This document shows positions 685 through 10,801 of a DNA stretch of 10,801 nt, piece by piece (positions within the stretch are counted from its first letter, which is position 1; every line of letters starts with the position of its first letter). Source of the stretch: a virus (Duplodnaviria; Heunggongvirae; Uroviricota; Caudoviricetes); the IMG/VR virus record IMGVR_UViG_2778261086_000004; one strand, given 5' to 3'. The translations under genes and the position numbers were made by a program. The notes below the pieces were generated by a model that was not told the DNA's origin, made no database searches, and was given only the letters and a program-made list of their open reading frames with translations.

Positions 685-2097
685 ATGGCTACTTGGCAAC
701 AAGGAATCAACTCAGGCGGCTTTCTTGCTGGTATCGGTGGGCAAAACTCAAATGCGCCAAAGGCAAGTGATGTAAGTGAGGCGTTGGCCTATATTCGCCA
801 GAACAACGAAATGGAGCGCTCAGGTCGCAATAACATCGGCCTTCAGGCGTTGCAGGGGCTTGGTAGTGTCGCTCAAACATATCAAGCCGCAAAGCAACAG
901 GAAGCGGATGCTGCATTCCAAAAAGAATATGCGGCAGCCATCCAGTCAGGTGATCGGCAGCAGGTGCGAGATCTGATGACCAAATATCCTGGTCAATTAG
1001 AGAAGATTCAGTCTGGTATGAAGTGGGCAGACGAAGACCAGCGCAATTCTATCGGCACCTTAGCGGCTGGCGCACGCCTTGCTGCCTCGTCTCCAGAAGC
1101 AATGCAATCATGGCTGCAAAACAACGCCAAGGAACTGACTCGCGTCGGTGTTGACCCTAATAACGTTGCTCAGATGTATCAGCAGAATCCTTCAGGATTT
1201 GGTGAGTTTGTTGATCACCTTGGAATGGCTGCGCTTGGTCCGATTGATTACTTCAATGTTCAGGACAAGATGGTTGGTCGTGAGATTGACCGAGGCAGGC
1301 TGGCAGAGACAATCCGCAGCAATCAGGCTGGCGAGGCACTTCAGGCGAGAGGGCAAAACCTTTCCTATCAGTCAGCAATGACTGGGCACAATATCGCAGC
1401 ACAACGTTTGGCTCTGGATCAGCAAGAGTTCGGGTTTAAGATGCAGCAAGCGCAGGAAAAGGCTCAGCAGTTGATTAGCGAAGCACCTAAGCTGTCAGTA
1501 AACATGGAAAAAGGCATCGAGACGGCTGTAAACAATGCCACAGCATCATCAAACTCAGCCAATTCCATGAGTGCGCTTGCTCAACAGTTTAGAGCAGAAA
1601 AACCAACGACAGGTTTGTTCGGTAACGCACAGAACATGTTCGCAAAACTTACCGGAAGCGATACGACATTGCGTGATTTGCGCATTCGCCAAAATGCCCT
1701 TGTTAACAGTCAGGTTCTTAAATTCCTACCTCCCGGCCCAGCAACGGATAAAGACGTTGAGATCGTTCGACAGGGTGCGCCAACTGACATGGATAACCCT
1801 GAGACGGTCGCAAGATGGCTTGATGCAATGGCAAACCTTGAGCGACGAAACGCGCAGTTTAATGAGTTTAAAGCCGAGTGGATGAGCGCGAATGGCAACC
1901 CTGGACAATCGCGTAATGGCGGTCAGATATTGGGGTTGGATGTTAAAAAAGGTGAATCATTGGGGAGTGCCGTTAAGCGGTATATGTCAATGAATACTGA
2001 CGCAGCGCCAGCACAAGATTCGACACCTTCAGGAGAACCACGGAATCAGGTTGGATCATATACCTCAAAATCAGGCATTCAATTTACGGTGGAATGA
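685..2097 (+). CDS. P22 gp20-like ejection protein
   Basis: 470-aa ORF (P22 gp20 is about 471 aa); SD-like AAGGTGG at 674-680 before ATG 685; stop overlaps the next start (ATGA at 2094-2097), indicating translational coupling. Confidence 0.7.
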
Positions 2098-3940: not shown

Positions 3941-4228
3941 CTATTTTTTAGTGTAATAATCATCAAAATCGCAAGAAACAGATATCACAAAACCTGAAGT
4001 CATAGAAAAAGACAGGGTTTCACATGCCTTTCCGGCTTGATGGTATGCATTGATGCCACCGTATACGGATTCTCTTGATGAAAACAATGATTTTTCACCG
4101 TTTTTTTCTACAAGAATATGCCCATCTGAATCATTAATAAACCAAACAGAAATAGAGGAGCTTTCGCCAAGGAATGTTCTGTTGAATACCATGGGGGATT
4201 TACCCTTGACAACATTTTCTGCGCGCAT
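3941..4228 (-). CDS. Hypothetical protein, 95 aa, no recognised domain
   Basis: Minus-strand ORF whose ATG (4228-4226) lies 2 nt after the TGA of the upstream minus-strand small ORF (TGAttATG). AT-rich region; sequence looks protein-like but I recognise no homolog. Confidence 0.4.
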   Translation of the reverse strand: MRAENVVKGKSPMVFNRTFLGESSSISVWFINDSDGHILVEKNGEKSLFSSRESVYGGINAYHQAGKACETLSFSMTSGFVISVSCDFDDYYTKK

Positions 4229-4230
4229 AA

Positions 4231-4389
4231 TCAGCTCAGCATTTTTTTGCTATTTTTTTGTTCTGTATAGATTTTGTCTGCCACAAAATAAACAATGGCA
4301 ATGGCTAACAAAGATAGGGAAATCAGCAATGCCTTTTTAATCAATTTTTTGGCATCCCTGTAAATCTCAATTGATAATTTTTCACTCAC
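4231..4389 (-). CDS. Hypothetical small single-pass membrane protein (about 52 aa) from a GTG start
   Basis: Strong SD AGGAGG (rc of 4395-4400) 5 nt upstream of in-frame GTG (4389-4387). Predicted TM helix ALLISLSLLAIAIVYFV flanked by Lys-rich segments. The longer 124-aa reading (4231..4605) overlaps the plus-strand gene and its N-terminal part looks non-coding. Confidence 0.35.
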   Translation of the reverse strand: MSEKLSIEIYRDAKKLIKKALLISLSLLAIAIVYFVADKIYTEQKNSKKMLS

Positions 4390-4419
4390 ACCAACCTCCT
4401 TAGTTTTGAGCAGGATACC

Positions 4420-4785
4420 ATGAAAAAAGTTAACATTGGAAACGTACCAAAGATGCTCGTTCCGCTTTTTGAGAGCGGTACAATTGTGTTTTGTAGAGAC
4501 TTTCCAGAATGGCAACGCCTGCATCAAAAACTTGGCGTTGACGTGCAGGACTCGGACGCCAACGGAGCGTCTCATACAATGAGCAGCGAGAATGGTGTTT
4601 TGCATGTGATAGGTGTGTTCAATGGCAAACTATCTACTATTGCCCATGAGTGCGCTCACATGGCATTCGATATCTGCTCAAGGGTAGGTGTTGATGTTGA
4701 ACCAGGAAGAGCCAACGAGACTTACTGCTACTTAATGAGCAGGCTTGTTGAGTTCTGCGAGCGACATATCAAAAAGCCGGAGTGA
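4420..4785 (+). CDS. Hypothetical protein, 121 aa, with HExxH (HECAH) zinc-metallopeptidase-like motif
   Basis: ORF with AGGA at 4412-4415 before ATG 4420; stop TGA sits in the loop of a bidirectional terminator hairpin. Motif IAHECAHMAF in a hydrophobic context resembles a zincin active-site helix; no family assigned. Confidence 0.55.
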   Translation: MKKVNIGNVPKMLVPLFESGTIVFCRDFPEWQRLHQKLGVDVQDSDANGASHTMSSENGVLHVIGVFNGKLSTIAHECAHMAFDICSRVGVDVEPGRANETYCYLMSRLVEFCERHIKKPE

Positions 4786-4798
4786 CCCGGCTTGATTA
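4774..4798. terminator. Bidirectional intrinsic terminator between convergent genes
   Basis: Stem aagccgg (4774-4780), loop agtgac, stem ccggctt (4787-4793); A-run upstream and T-rich tract downstream (gattattactttttgc), so it can terminate both strands. Confidence 0.5.
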
Positions 4799-4978
4799 TT
4801 ACTTTTTGCTGTCTGGAGTTCGCTTATCCAATACCCAGCCATGACCTGGCTTTGTTGTTGGCGGAAGTCTTTCGTTGTCCCTGACGGTGGCAAAATTGTC
4901 CTTCTTACCACCGCGTGGCCCAACTTCCTGGTATATTCCGCCGTTTTTCCCTGTATTTTCACCTGGTTTTTTCGCCAT
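4799..4978 (-). CDS. Small YjzC-like protein (59 aa from MAKKPGENTG...)
   Basis: In the 64-aa ORF 4799..4993 the likely start is the internal ATG at 4978-4976, preceded by GAGGT. Pattern KPGE..G.NGGIY.EVG..G...LPPTT..G.W resembles the YjzC-like small-protein family as I recall it. Confidence 0.55.
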   Translation of the reverse strand: MAKKPGENTGKNGGIYQEVGPRGGKKDNFATVRDNERLPPTTKPGHGWVLDKRTPDSKK

Positions 4979-5014
4979 GATATACCTCAACATACACCCG
5001 TTATTGGGCGATTA

Positions 5015-5043
5015 AATATTGATCTCATTTTATAAGTAGTCAA
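5015..5043 (-). promoter_or_regulatory. Putative sigma70-type promoter for the YjzC-like gene
   Basis: On the minus strand: TTGACT (rc of 5038-5043), 17-bp spacer, AATATT (5015-5020), about 35 nt upstream of the ATG at 4978. Sequence inspection only. Confidence 0.25.
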
Positions 5044-5070
5044 TATGGCCCAGGTAAATGCAAAAATTAA

Positions 5071-5092
5071 CCCACCTTCAGGTGGGTTTTTT
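5071..5092 (+). terminator. Intrinsic terminator (cccacc-ttca-ggtggg plus T6)
   Basis: Perfect 6-bp GC-rich stem with 4-nt loop followed by TTTTTTGT; an A-rich run upstream gives some bidirectional potential. Confidence 0.55.
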
Positions 5093-5144
5093 GTACAAAT
5101 CCTTCAGCCAGTACATAACTACTGACAGATAACCAACGCAACGA

Positions 5145-5167
5145 CCCAGCTTCGGCTGGGTTTTTTT
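5145..5167 (+). terminator. Intrinsic terminator (cccagc-ttcg-gctggg plus T7)
   Basis: 6-bp stem, tetraloop ttcg, followed by TTTTTTTAT; second of two tandem terminators upstream of the tailspike gene. Confidence 0.55.
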
Positions 5168-5173
5168 ATGCCC

Positions 5174-5193
5174 AAAATTCACCGTGTCCACGC
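5174..5193. repeat. Copy 1 of a 20-bp direct repeat (AAAATTCACCGTgtCCAcGC)
   Basis: Matches 5285-5304 (AAAATTCACCGTagCCAtGC) at 17 of 20 positions, about 111 bp apart, flanking the 23-bp palindrome. Confidence 0.4.
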
Positions 5194-5216
5194 TTAGGTA
5201 ATGAGCTTGAAGGAGA

Positions 5217-5239
5217 GCACTACACAAAAAGTGTAGTGC
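5217..5239. promoter_or_regulatory. 23-bp perfect palindrome GCACTACAC-AAAAA-GTGTAGTGC; candidate operator or RNA structure
   Basis: 9-bp perfect inverted repeat with 5-bp A spacer about 100 bp upstream of the tailspike start; no T-tract on either side, so it is unlikely to be a terminator. Confidence 0.4.
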
Positions 5240-5284
5240 AAAAAGCGAACAAAATAACTTCCTAAAAAGTTGTTTTATCACAAA

Positions 5285-5304
5285 AAAATTCACCGTAGCC
5301 ATGC
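5285..5304. repeat. Copy 2 of the 20-bp direct repeat
   Basis: See copy 1; lies about 30 bp upstream of the tailspike start codon. Confidence 0.4.
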
Positions 5305-5336
5305 TGCGGCGATTCCTTGTATCTGGAGCAAATTAA

Positions 5337-7103
5337 ATGACAGATTCGATAAATGCCAATGTTGTAGTGAGTATGCCTTCGCAACTCTTCACTATGGCGC
5401 GTTCTTTTAAAGCCGTTGCCAATGGAAAAATTTATATCGGTAAAATTGATACTGACCCGGTAAATCCAGAAAACCAGATTCAGGTTTATATGGAGAACGA
5501 AGACGGCTCTCACGTTCCTGTTTCGCAACCAATCATCATTAACGCTGCTGGTTATCCGGTATATAACGGACAGATTGCAAAGTTCGTTACCGTACAGGGA
5601 CATTCAATGGCTGTGTATGACGCATATGGCACACAGCAGTTCTACTATCCAAACATTCTCAAGTATGACCCGGACCAGTTCCGGCATGAGCTAGAGGGAG
5701 AGTTTGCAAGCGGGGCATTCCCTGAAACAGTAAAGTATAAGTATGGATTACCATCTGTTGTTGATGGTGCTGTCTTCAGGAATGTACAAGAAAAGCTGGA
5801 TGATTTTGTATTTTTGGAAGACTTTGGTGGCAAAGACGATTCTGGAATAACAGATAATAGCATAGCCTTTCAGAAGGCATTCGCTTCAGGCGCAAGAAAA
5901 ATTCACTTGAAAGGTTCTGGCATATATGGAATGAAGACCAGAGACATTGAGCTTCCAGCAAAATATGAAATTATTGGTAATGCAAAAAATCCAGAGATTA
6001 AATATCTAGGTTCTGATTCAACCTTCACTATGTTTACCCTTACAGGGTCTGGCCCGGCTTCTAGTCAGTGGAAACAGGGTGGCATATTCCGAGATGTAGT
6101 CATATCATCCGACGTGCTGATTAACTGGATTGTTTGTCGTCATGTCCAGAACTTAGAGTTTGATCGGGTGTTTTTCTATAACGCACAAACTACTATGAAC
6201 AACTACCATTACTTTAACTTCTTCCGGTGCGAACGTTGGGGTAGTCCATTCTTGGGGCGTGCGGATTTAAATACTGTGGAGTTCATCAGCGAATCACCTA
6301 AGTTTCTTATGTGTTTCAGTTCTAACTCTCCGATTGACGTATGGGATACCGCCGATTTATATATCAGCCAATGTACGATGTTTGTTGGAGATTACGCGGT
6401 AAGGACACGCACAACACTTGGTGGGATGGGTGGAACAGACCAATTCGCGGGTTATCCGGTTATAATTTCAAATAGCGTTTTCGATGCCATCAACGGCCCT
6501 GCTTTCGATATGGAGAGTCTAGCTTACGCTACCATCAGCGGTAACATTATTAGTGCTGGGAGGCCGAACAATGCTCGTGGGATACATATTAAAGGTGCTA
6601 GAAACCTGGCATTTACGGGAAATACTATCACCTACTGTGGTGAGTTTGGTATGGTGTTGGAAAATGCTGAACAATGCTCTTTGTCGAATAATATATACAA
6701 CGGAAATAAGACTGGCGGGCTATCGTTGGTAAATTGCAAAGAGGTATCTGTCATTGGCGGTGCTATGGGTACATCTTATATCCGGGGTGGTTACTACGTG
6801 CAACCACTGGGGATTACAGACCCCGGCGATAACTGTAACGGCATAACCATCAATGGCGTTTCTTTCGATAGCGATATGACAACCAAGATTTACCTTAATA
6901 CATCGGAAGAGCGCAAAAACCGTATTATAGCTTGTCTAGGTGTTAATGATACTCCGACGACTTATCAGAACAGGGGGTCTACCGCGCAGCGCCCTACAGC
7001 ACCAGTCAGTGGGCAGATGTATTATGATACAACGCTAGGTCTTCCAATATGGTATAACACAGTATCATCTGAATGGAAGAGGGCGGATGGTACAAGTGTA
7101 TGA
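5337..7103 (+). CDS. Tailspike protein: P22 gp9-type N-terminal head-binding domain fused to a divergent beta-helix receptor-binding domain
   Basis: 588 aa; GGAG at 5325-5328. The first roughly 110 residues ([12 protein letters not shown]...[26 protein letters not shown]...[13 protein letters not shown]...LKYDPDQ) closely match the P22 tailspike N-terminus from memory. The remainder has beta-helix-like repeats (ISGNII, FTGNTI, LSNNIY) but is not P22-like. Confidence 0.9.
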
Positions 7104-7134: not shown

Positions 7135-8601
7135 TTAATTGCAGTTGAATGTAATGTTTTTATCGTAAACAAAAATCTTCTTATCTCCGACGTCAATAAC
7201 CTTTGATGGATTACCAATCTCTTTAATTGTTATATTTCTCATAACCTCATCATCTGTAATTATGAAATTTCCTCCGCGCTCATACCAATAGTTTTTTGAC
7301 AACCATTTATTGCATGCAAGTATATTCAAACCTCGGTTTACATCAATCGGAGCAATTGATATGTCTCCATCTATACTTGCTGATGAAGCAAACCAGAAAG
7401 ATGCATACCCGTTTGTGAGGTTATTCTGCCTTACAGTGTGTTTTATCTGATTTATAATATCATTAGAATTGTCTTTTTTTTCATGCATATAAATAGAACA
7501 AAAGAGAATAAATGTTGTAACAACCCCTAATGCGATGAATTTCCACCCTCTGGAGTTGTTAGATCTGCCAATAACAACAGGTGCTAGTATGAAAAATGGA
7601 ACGATATATCTTATAGTCCATTCATCTATTGGACGGTTACTTGCAAGGTATGCTGGTATCATTATAATACAAGCTATACATATAGCCATATTGACCATGG
7701 AGGTTTTGAATATTTCCTTTACTGACATTGCAACTAATATAAGAAGTAAAATCATTACAACAAAACAAAAAACAGAAATAAGCGCTGTAATATCAGAAGG
7801 TGGTTTGCCAAAGAAGAAAGCTCCACTGTATAGGAGGAATCCTTTTACGAATAAGTATAAATTATTCAGGATATCATCAAATGCAACAAATGTTGGATCT
7901 GGAACGCCTGGCAAAATGTACCAGTTATGAGCTCTTGCGTACATGGTCATAATTTTTGATGCAACATATGCAAATATAGTTGCAACTAGTATGATCAGAT
8001 TTTTTTGGCTTTTGGTTTTTACTATAAAAACCACTGATGATATTGCTACTGGTGCAATAATGAGTAGCTTTATGATGTCATCACTGAAACAAGCTAGAAC
8101 TAACACTAAAATATAAAGAGATAGAGAAATTAACGATCTTGTTTTGGAAAAATTGTCTAACATTATGAAGCAAAACAACATGGATACATATGTGCCGACA
8201 TGTATCACAGGTATTAATACGTTTAATACTGCAAACCCAGAAGGCAGCGCAACGCAAAATGAAATGGCCCATAACGATGAAAGCCTTTCTTTTGAAAGAT
8301 AAAATGTCATCAATGTAACCATTGAATACATAATTGCCGGTATGCAGTATGCTTGGTACTGTCCGTACCAGAATACCTTTGAAGCAAGCCCGTACCATAT
8401 TATGTCTGTAAAATAGAATGATACTGTAGAGAGATACCATCCACTAAGCGTCCAATTTCCGTCCGCAATGTCCTTACCCTCAAGAAGTCCAGAAACAGCA
8501 TCCGAACTTGGCAAAATCTGTTTTGAAATCGAGGCGTAGAAGAAAGTCAAGAATATAAATCCAATGATATATATGGCTGTTTTTTTTATATTTAAAGTCA
8601 T
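7135..8601 (-). CDS. gtrC: GtrC-family serotype-specific O-antigen glucosyltransferase (polytopic membrane protein)
   Basis: 488-aa, markedly AT-rich ORF directly downstream of gtrB (TAA, 1 nt, ATG), with many hydrophobic segments; position and architecture typical of the type-specific third gene of gtr operons. Specificity cannot be assigned. Confidence 0.8.
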   Translation of the reverse strand: MTLNIKKTAIYIIGFIFLTFFYASISKQILPSSDAVSGLLEGKDIADGNWTLSGWYLSTVSFYFTDIIWYGLASKVFWYGQYQAYCIPAIMYSMVTLMTFYLSKERLSSLWAISFCVALPSGFAVLNVLIPVIHVGTYVSMLFCFIMLDNFSKTRSLISLSLYILVLVLACFSDDIIKLLIIAPVAISSVVFIVKTKSQKNLIILVATIFAYVASKIMTMYARAHNWYILPGVPDPTFVAFDDILNNLYLFVKGFLLYSGAFFFGKPPSDITALISVFCFVVMILLLILVAMSVKEIFKTSMVNMAICIACIIMIPAYLASNRPIDEWTIRYIVPFFILAPVVIGRSNNSRGWKFIALGVVTTFILFCSIYMHEKKDNSNDIINQIKHTVRQNNLTNGYASFWFASSASIDGDISIAPIDVNRGLNILACNKWLSKNYWYERGGNFIITDDEVMRNITIKEIGNPSKVIDVGDKKIFVYDKNITFNCN

Positions 8602-10083: not shown

Positions 10084-10242
10084 CAGGTCACTAATACCAT
10101 CTAAGTAGTTGATTCATAGTGACTGGATATGTTGTGTTTTGTAGTATCATGCAGTCTATTTTTTAGACTAAATGTATTTTAACGCATTGATATTGTTGGC
10201 TTTTGCTGTTTCGCGTTCAGCTTTTTTATACTAACTTGAGCG
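10084..10242 (+). other. attR (P arm, core, B') of a lambda-type site-specific recombination system at the E. coli attB-lambda site
   Basis: Arm-type sites CAGGTCACTAATAC (10084-10097) and CATAGTGACTGG (about 10115-10128); the first roughly 75 bp of the arm are near-identical to the lambda attP P arm and the rest is diverged. Core GCTTTTTTATACTAA at 10220-10234 is followed by the bacterial B' sequence CTTGAGCGAAACG. Confidence 0.85.
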
Positions 10243-10293
10243 AAACGGGAAGGTAAAAAGACAAAAAGTTGTTTTTAATACCTTTAAGTGATA

Positions 10294-10316
10294 CCAGATG
10301 GCATTGCGCCATCTGG
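10294..10316 (-). terminator. Possible transcription terminator or stabilising hairpin downstream of ybhB
   Basis: 9-bp perfect stem ccagatggc / gccatctgg with 5-nt loop just 3' of the ybhB stop on the minus strand; the downstream U-tract is weak, so confidence is low. Confidence 0.3.
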
Positions 10317-10324
10317 CAGAGTGA

Positions 10325-10801
10325 TTAACTAAACATCGCAGTAATCGAGGCGCTTGCCAGAGAGTGGAAATGAACGTTAAACCCGACCATCGCGCCGCTG
10401 GCACCTTCATCGACATCAATACGTTCTATATCCAGCGCGTGAACGGTAAAAATGTAGCGATGAGTTTCGCCTTTCGGCGGTGCTGCGCCATCGTACCCGG
10501 TTTTACCAAAGTCGGTACGCGTCTGCAAAACGCCGTCTGGCATTGCTACCAGACCAGAGCCAAACCCTTGCGGTAATACGCGGGTATCAGCGGGTAAGTT
10601 AACAACTACCCAGTGCCACCAGCCGGAGCCGGTTGGCGCATCCGGGTCGTAGCAGGTGACAACAAAACTTTTCGTTCCCGCAGGAACATCATCCCACGCC
10701 AGATGCGGTGAAATATTATCGCCATCGTAACCCATGCCGTTAAAGACATGACGATGCGGCAATTTATCGCCATCGCGCAGATCGTTACTGATGAGTTTCA
10801 T
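10325..10801 (-). CDS. ybhB: Host PEBP/RKIP-family protein YbhB (complete, 158 aa)
   Basis: ORF translation MKLISNDLRDGDKLPHRHVFNGMGYDGDNISPHLAWDDVPAGTKSFVVTCYDPDAP... matches E. coli YbhB as recalled; ybhB is the gene beside attB-lambda on the bio side, transcribed toward the att site, as seen here. Confidence 0.9.
   Translation of the reverse strand: MKLISNDLRDGDKLPHRHVFNGMGYDGDNISPHLAWDDVPAGTKSFVVTCYDPDAPTGSGWWHWVVVNLPADTRVLPQGFGSGLVAMPDGVLQTRTDFGKTGYDGAAPPKGETHRYIFTVHALDIERIDVDEGASGAMVGFNVHFHSLASASITAMFS

Follow-up and report, generated by a model that had tools for sequence, protein, structure and literature searches.

What remains of the immI region in a prophage that has lost the genes of this second immunity system, and do a perfect palindrome and a pair of direct repeats in front of its tailspike gene belong to those remains? 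We addressed this question in a 10,801-nucleotide stretch of viral DNA (IMG/VR record IMGVR_UViG_2778261086_000004), the whole of which we call the window. Positions 5069-5336 of the window connect the ejection-protein and moron genes to the tailspike gene of a P22-like (HK620-like) E. coli prophage. Homologues of genes 20 and 16 lie upstream and the tailspike and gtrABC genes lie downstream, and the interval thus has the location of immI, between gene 16 and gene 9 of the P22-like late operon. After a lambda-type attachment core (GCTTTTTTATACTAA, 10219-10233) comes an E. coli ybhB flank (10236-10801), shared by 5,410 of 5,426 genomes. The window thus spans a junction of prophage and chromosome: a P22-like prophage has its right end here, at the lambda attachment site of an E. 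coli-type chromosome. The coordinates of the features discussed below are collected in Table 1.

Several observations concern the neighbouring genes. The tailspike (5337-7103) is a protein of 588 aa with a P22-type head-binding domain at residues 4-114 (Pfam Head_binding, E=1.3e-65) and a beta-helix domain. Its DNA similarity to HK620 and P22 ends near 5680, which indicates that the receptor-binding part is of a different type. Two minus-strand ORFs, at 3941-4228 (95 aa) and 4231-4605 (124 aa), occupy the place of sieA in P22 and of hkcB in HK620, and neither had a match in Pfam or PHROG. The putative ORF at 4231-4605 overlaps the start of hkcC by 186 nt and its own start is uncertain.

Table 1 Features between the moron genes and the tailspike gene, in window coordinates.
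Feature	Position	Strand	Basis or remark
hkcC homologue, 121 aa, 'ant moron' gene	4420-4785	+	phrog_1365, E=1.4e-39; alignment to HK620 hkcC
Bidirectional terminator hairpin between hkcC and orf59a (tORF59A in HK620)	4774-4793		
orf59a/HkcD homologue, 64 aa	4799-4993	-	phrog_3202, E=2.7e-31; alignment to P22 orf59a
Hairpin AACCCACCTTCAGGTGGGTT with T run, terminator-like on both strands, overlapping the mnt stop (tMNT in HK620)	5069-5094		
mnt 3' remnant, stop and 9 codons (LKDLYKKPT-stop)	5078-5108	-	P22 alignment ends at 5108 (L002:3409)
74-aa ORF, not a gene	5078-5302	-	mnt tail, antisense ant tail and antisense spacer
Deletion joint	5108-5109		L002:3410-4836 (1,427 bp) absent relative to P22
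P22-type ant 3' remnant, final 4-5 codons (VHNY) and TGA stop	5109-5125	+	P22 alignment
Intrinsic terminator after ant (tANT), GACCCAGCTTCGGCTGGGTT and T7	5143-5169	+	annotated in P22-pbi and HK620
Direct repeat copy 1, AAAATTCACCGTGTCCACGCT, duplicated start of the gene 9 leader	5174-5194	+	also in P22
Internal fragment (80 nt) of a P1 Ant1/Ant2-type antirepressor gene (DELEGE-HY..VV-QKANK.TS...)	5201-5280	+	closed by in-frame TAA
Perfect 23-bp palindrome GCACTACAC-AAAAA-GTGTAGTGC, 9-bp stem, A5 loop	5217-5239		RNA -14.9 kcal/mol
AU-rich hairpin (AAAATAACTT/AAGTTGTTTT) leading into T-rich sequence, within the gene fragment	5251-5276	+	fold
Direct repeat copy 2, start of the conserved pre-gene 9 leader of many P22-like phages	5285-5305	+	
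Tailspike Shine-Dalgarno GGAG (5325-5328) and ATG (5337-5339)	5325-5339	+	tailspike gene 5337-7103

We aligned the interval with the P22 immI region (locus L002) at the nucleotide level, and found a significant match that breaks at 5108/5109. The window follows P22 up to 5108, which corresponds to a point 31 nt into the 3' end of mnt, and follows it again from 5109, which corresponds to L002:4837, 17 nt before the ant stop codon. Based on the P22-pbi annotation, the DNA lost between these points comprises most of mnt, Pmnt, Pant, Omnt, Oarc, arc, sar and nearly all of ant. Identity to P22 over 4902-5108 was 95% up to the joint in a sensitive alignment, and a megablast match of 409 nt covered 4700-5108. 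When 4700-5400 was compared by megablast with deposited phages, HK620 was the sole near-full match, while P22 and its relatives matched 4700-5108 only.

Thus, as the original prediction had it, immI has lost mnt, arc and ant; by the P22 alignment the genes, promoters and operators are all gone. Of the intact mnt gene, which codes for a ribbon-helix-helix repressor, the stop and nine codons are left, and 17 nt are left of ant. Both arc and ant, with the divergent promoters Pant and Pmnt, fall entirely within the missing L002:3410-4836. An Rfam search of the window yielded neither sar nor any other family at E<=1, and the same search detected sar in the P22 locus at 96 bits. The likeness to Mnt from which the prediction started was also borne out. 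The minus-strand ORF at 5078-5302 ends in ...GYLSVVMYWLKDLYKKPT-stop (its end is also given as ...VVMYWLKDLYKKPT-stop) and P22 Mnt ends in ...KKMVFDTLKDLYKKTT-stop, with 8 of the final 9 residues matching, and the 95% alignment makes this homology at the DNA level. The VVMYW residues upstream of the mnt tail in the same ORF are the antisense of the ant remnant.

In the window as in HK620, the 3' ends of mnt and ant are fused at one and the same nucleotide, and the two terminator hairpins on either side of the joint have been kept. An 80-nt probe spanning the joint covered HK620 at 97.5%. The scar is thus already known, being annotated in the HK620 record of 2001 and discussed in a passage of PMC2629481. 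We found the same joint in 16 IMG/VR contigs and in 19 of 5,426 complete E. coli genomes; a scan of species-representative genomes for the spacer and joint patterns gave no exact match. The left flank of the joint takes three different forms, which means that the block reaching from the hairpin to the leader moves by recombination.

The terminator scan of 4700-5450, on both strands, gave 6 terminator-like sites versus 0.8 expected. The stems of the two hairpins at the joint (5069-5088 and 5143-5162) are each followed by a T run, and the terminators stand 74 nt apart. Compared over 23 nt (5069-5092, ACCCACCTTCAGGTGGGTTTTTT, and 5144-5166, ACCCAGCTTCGGCTGGGTTTTTT), the hairpins share 87% identity. 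In the same 4700-5450 interval no plus-strand sigma-70-like site was found that might serve as a gene 9 promoter, the sole sigma-70-like site being a minus-strand one at 5043-5015 that precedes orf59a. The antisense RNA STnc6030 of phage BTP1 was considered and set aside; going by the coordinates in PMC7067206, its start seems to fall well within the tailspike gene, and BTP1 has no comparable spacer.

We then turned to the palindrome, which is indeed perfect over the 23 bp predicted. The window has three perfect hairpins whose arms reach 9 bp or more, versus a mean of 0.4 in shuffles. The other two lie at 8013-8033, inside the gtrC-like gene, and at 10294-10316 (CCAGATGGCATTGCGCCATCTGG), in the chromosomal flank before ybhB. 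An intrinsic terminator was rejected as an identity for the palindrome, which has no U run (it is followed by AAAAAGCG on the plus strand and by TCTCCTTC on the minus strand) and scored negative in the terminator scan. The scan also did not pick up the AU-rich hairpin at 5251-5276.

The palindrome lies within a fragment of a gene. Positions 5201-5280 match L195:1604-1683, part of a 260-aa antirepressor gene, with 80% identity across 80 nt, and the fragment shows 94% identity over 52 nt to contig L083 and ~90% over 44 nt to an APSE-7 gene. Read in the antirepressor frame it gives N-ELEGEHYTKSVVQKANKITS-stop, where full genes read DELEGEHYEIFVVQKANKTTSEKVVMS, and the in-frame TAA is at 5263-5265. 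A complete antirepressor of this kind has the N-domain IDSQ...DELEGE.Y...KQALRVAARESKAVRR, usually together with KilAC; here 80 nt only are homologous. Within P1 ant1/ant2 (immI of P1) and their homologues the fragment corresponds to approximately codons 35-61 of the conserved N-domain, and the P1-like copy carries ACCTACGAAATTTTCGTAGGT at the matching codons. Unlike P1 ant1/ant2, the fragment has neither a start nor KilAC and is closed by a stop, and cannot make an antirepressor. Nonetheless, it holds the stem-loop found in intact genes right after the DELEGE codons, with the palindrome aligning column for column with the helix of the family. Judging by this alignment, the palindrome is evidently a relic of a conserved intragenic stem-loop of the P1 Ant1/Ant2-type antirepressor family. 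The long-form spacer is an older mosaic in its own right, with the direct repeats flanking 111 bp of DNA in which the fragment lies. The P22-type spacer thus carries the fossil of a second kind of immI antirepressor, and the window records two rounds of immI decay. Our combined findings very probably amount to a single clean immI deletion next to a long-form P22 spacer with a relic of a P1-Ant-type gene.

The source family of the fragment is annotated as 'anti-repressor' (phrog_1726, phrog_63), often has a Pfam ANT/KilAC C-domain, and includes Ant1 of P1-like phages at 73% identity. In P22-like contigs the source gene lies either within immI, where its neighbours are mnt-like and arc-like genes and a homologue of sar, or immediately before gene 9. 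One such immI, in contig L195, has a sar homologue (755-822, minus strand, 50 bits) together with tandem antirepressor-type genes, a BRO-N-like one followed by one of the P1-Ant type.

We asked how the stem-loop behaves in the intact genes. Coding copies were recovered by a DNA pattern made from the flanks only, which is free of bias toward palindromes, and a protein-based collection comprised 160 loci with 98 distinct N-domain sequences. In the coding copies the 23 nt after DELEGE are always palindromic and their sequence varies. In an alignment of 62 distinct rows of 51 nt, 57 from coding copies and 5 from spacers, 97.7% of the cells of the 9-bp helix were paired, and five of its nine pairs were doubly changed (126 cells). 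When the partners were slid by 1-3 columns, 28-46% of cells were paired, and none of 500 shuffles reached the observed score. The residue changes in the protein correspond to complementary codon pairs (TYTKSVG, TYKIFVG, TYEIFVG, FYTKSVK, GYKTFVT, YYTKSVV and HYEIFVV). Furthermore, the helix codons are nearly devoid of synonymous variation (Tyr TAC in 98/98, Val GTA in 98/98, Thr ACC in 51/52 and Lys AAA in 47/47), whereas such variation is near its maximum at most other N-domain codons, the suppression being confined to the helix. These patterns show selection on base pairing in P1 Ant1/Ant2-type genes.

The stem-loop ranges over P1-like phages, Stx phages, P22-like immI regions, APSE and Acinetobacter phages. 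Examples with stems of 9-11 bp are found in phi456 (L258:1918-1938), in APSE-7 (L003:2518-2538) and in IMG/VR contigs (L079-L238, ~1618-1640 in each). The helix is kept in an Acinetobacter phage homologue with 44% protein identity and in an Rtp-like coliphage, and is missing in Vibrio and Pseudomonas homologues, which also lack the DELEGE.Y motif. A run of A residues follows the stem-loop in APSE-7, with 7 A in L003 and 8 A in strain 3046 (L004:2517-2556). The extra A breaks the antirepressor-like frame in strain 3046, where the gene is unannotated, and could reflect either a slippage-prone tract or a sequencing error. An Rfam search with the hairpin in full-length antirepressor genes gave no family match, while sar and C4 were found as controls. 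The literature searched held no description of the stem-loop, and a search on P1 ant hairpins or Rho termination turned up nothing useful. The stem-loop family is the sole part of our result that may be new.

What might the stem-loop do in an intact gene? Antirepressor genes need tight repression in lysogens, and the antirepressors of P22 and P1 are under elaborate RNA and protein controls, including sar, c4, Arc and Mnt. In P1, the c4 RNA blocks translation of the upstream icd, leading to Rho-dependent termination before ant. From this scheme comes our leading guess, which we hold weakly, that the stem-loop acts in cis in the mRNA and ties antirepressor expression to translation, as a pause, Rho-release or processing site. 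A dyad acting at the DNA level is a possible alternative. Single mismatches in the helix comprised ~5 plus-strand G-U events versus 2 minus-strand and ~3 non-wobble events, which are few for discriminating between RNA and DNA or between strands. An SD-like GAAGGAGAG upstream of the hairpin was ruled out as part of the element, its codons being free at synonymous sites. HK022 Roi, a KilAC protein that reportedly binds a site in its own gene (a finding said to be that of Clerget and Boccard in 1996), was considered as a precedent, and is a loose one only, with an unrelated, Rha-like N-domain. If the guess is true, a stem-loop in the coding sequence would be an extra control point in the classic P1-type antirepressor system.

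Whether the relic is still active in the spacer is a separate matter. The helix is kept in all five spacer variants, three of them perfect and two with a single U-G on the plus strand, and the spacer hairpins have stabilities of -12.5 to -15 kcal/mol. Of 228 spacer positions, 16 differ between P22 and the window. Among these differences, 6 belong to the stem, which has 18 positions, and every one of the 6 is compensatory (Fisher p=5e-4); the P22 stem reads GACCTACAA/TTGTAGGTC and thus has three compensated pair changes. The leader also folds better than shuffles (z=-5.0, a score that includes the terminator). A stem that changes faster than its flanks and yet stays paired hints at retained function or at a special mutational process. 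An inert relic does not account for the compensatory changes, which are odd for inert DNA. That the relic stem-loop still works as an RNA hairpin tuning tailspike expression, through mRNA stability, polymerase pausing, Rho access or processing, would add to our best explanation rather than replace it. We nonetheless consider it rather unlikely, since the 111-bp segment that carries the palindrome is dispensable in HK620, epsilon34 and many other phages. In addition, the stem alleles could have come by gene conversion from full-length antirepressor genes with the same alleles, or could have arisen without selection by hairpin-templated mutation, in which one arm is copied to the other, and five known variants are all that the comparison can draw on. 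The proposal that the stem-loop is a cis-element controlling antirepressor expression, for example as a translation-sensitive pause or Rho-release site or through RNA processing or stability, and was kept in the tailspike leader since it is still acting there, we put forward tentatively, at slightly less than an even chance.

The original prediction had instead read the palindrome and repeats as operator-like sites of immI. On the corresponding rival explanation, Mnt or another repressor encoded elsewhere would bind them and they would regulate the tailspike gene. Repeat copy 1 does contain the 7-mers CACCGTG and GTCCACG, both of which are present in the P22 Mnt operator, and a perfect dyad has the classic shape of a dimer-binding site. 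However, the resemblance to the operator goes no further than chance. The 17-bp Mnt operator (AGGTCCACGGTGGACCT) matches the repeats at 11/17 and 10/17 positions at best, which is no better than at four other places in the window and is typical of random 300-nt slices. With the Mnt and Arc operators both sought, the best matches were 11/17 and 14/21, equal to those at random window places. The P22 copies of the repeat lack GTCCACG, and the true operators fall inside the deleted DNA. Moreover, P22 itself, with immI complete, has the palindrome and both repeats downstream of the ant terminator, and they are therefore not debris of an operator. Across relatives the palindrome arms have at least seven different sequences and are always complementary, fitting a structure better than the site of one protein, and in 65 loci a search up to 1.5 kb from the palindrome gave no excess of further arm copies (6 found versus ~12 expected). 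We therefore regard the operator reading as very improbable. The further suggestion that the palindrome may bind a factor encoded elsewhere finds no support, as HK620 and epsilon34 are viable without the segment, and the palindrome and repeats would thus need no trans-acting factor. Regulatory fragments of immI have been kept in the form of the two terminators, along with a few mnt and ant codons; the palindrome and repeats are not among them.

The direct repeats have another origin. They are present as predicted but are not exact, with 18 of 21 positions identical and the first 12 exact. Copy 1 is a duplicate of the first 21 nt of the gene 9 leader, which precedes gene 9 behind differing upstream genes; in contig L085 the leader matches window positions 5284-5336 at 96%. 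A short spacer with one hybrid repeat copy is found in HK620, epsilon34, Emek, Kapi1 and most IMG/VR contigs with the joint, whereas P22 and the window have the long spacer, with 111 bp extra. The distance between the joint region and the ribosome binding site of gene 9 is 225 nt in the window, as in P22, and ~113 nt in the short form. The window differs from HK620 in this neighbouring spacer, not in the scar. We infer that a P1-Ant-type gene once stood before gene 9, that a P22-type ant module equipped with a leader start of its own was joined into it, and that most of the P1-Ant-type gene was then deleted. In the short form the insert would either never have been present or have been lost through recombination between the repeats. 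This order of events is a reconstruction.

A small mobile insertion of the MITE kind, with the 21-bp repeats as its target duplication, would also give a segment that is polymorphic for presence and absence. It would likewise suit a left junction that is the same behind two upstream genes, the P22-type ant and the P1-Ant-type gene (contigs L052/L242 versus the others). However, the repeats are long and imperfect for a target duplication, terminal inverted repeats are not apparent at the segment ends, and the interior is homologous to the inside of a protein-coding gene. No copies were found at unrelated sites in large collections, where 12 viral and 5 metagenome contigs have the pattern. In all 11 viral and 5 metagenome contigs with the flank, the segment lies directly after the leader repeat copy, behind an antirepressor-gene terminator. 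Homologous recombination in the shared gene 9 leader explains its spread between contexts, and we find a mobile insertion scarcely credible. Finally, a truncated or novel Mnt-related protein encoded by the 74-aa minus-strand ORF has next to no likelihood: the frame is open from an ATG and has the Mnt-like C-terminus, but, as the original prediction recognized, it lacks a Mnt-like N-domain and crosses two terminators, and it has lost the ribbon-helix-helix fold of that domain, owes 9 residues only to mnt, has no PHROG match, runs antisense to non-coding spacer and is without 111 bp in HK620, so that the ORF is a spurious, chance frame.

Reasoning from P22 biology, no immI regulation would be left in this prophage, and with Pant gone, tailspike expression would depend on late-operon transcripts. 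The gp23 antiterminator, going by P22 and HK620, would make these transcripts resistant to termination and allow read-through of both hairpins; for unmodified polymerase the two hairpins would insulate the tailspike gene from neighbouring transcription. The spacer elements would play no role. We thus have an E. coli prophage without antirepressor-based second immunity, whose tailspike should rely on late-operon read-through alone.

How does the window compare with known phages? A passage of the epsilon34 genome paper (Villafane et al. 2008; PMC2629481) treats the interval between gene 16 and gene 9 as an 'ant moron' in rapid flux, and the HK620 ant gene is reported there as degraded. The window shares with the 'ant moron' both this position and the mosaic gain and loss. 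The P1-Ant-type fragment of the P22 spacer and its stem-loop do not figure in that passage. P22 (Sauer et al. 1983; AF527608) has flanks 93-95% identical to those of the window, and its spacer between ant and gene 9 shares with the window the terminator, the two repeats, the gene fragment and the palindrome at the same place; this well-studied spacer is thus shown to hold the fossil of a second antirepressor gene. P22 differs in keeping the 1,427 bp that the window lacks, with mnt, Pmnt/Pant, Omnt, Oarc, arc, sar and ant. HK620 (AF335538; Clark et al. 2001) has, between hkcC and gene 9, a joint identical to that of the window and both hairpins, and to the left it likewise has hkcC and orf59a/HkcD as neighbours. 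Its identity to the window is 95% over 4902-5194, continuous across the joint, and 97% over 5285-5400. In its GenBank record the hairpins are labelled as terminators, tMNT and tANT, 'associated with remnant of P22 mnt/ant gene'. The HK620 spacer is short, however, without the 111 bp between the repeats and hence without the palindrome, whereas other long-form carriers of the joint (L045, L070 and E. coli Z1322HEC0003) have a left flank that differs from that of the window. The window is therefore one more copy of the HK620 scar annotated in 2001, in a region of fast immunity-gene turnover, and combines the joint and left flank of HK620 with the long spacer.
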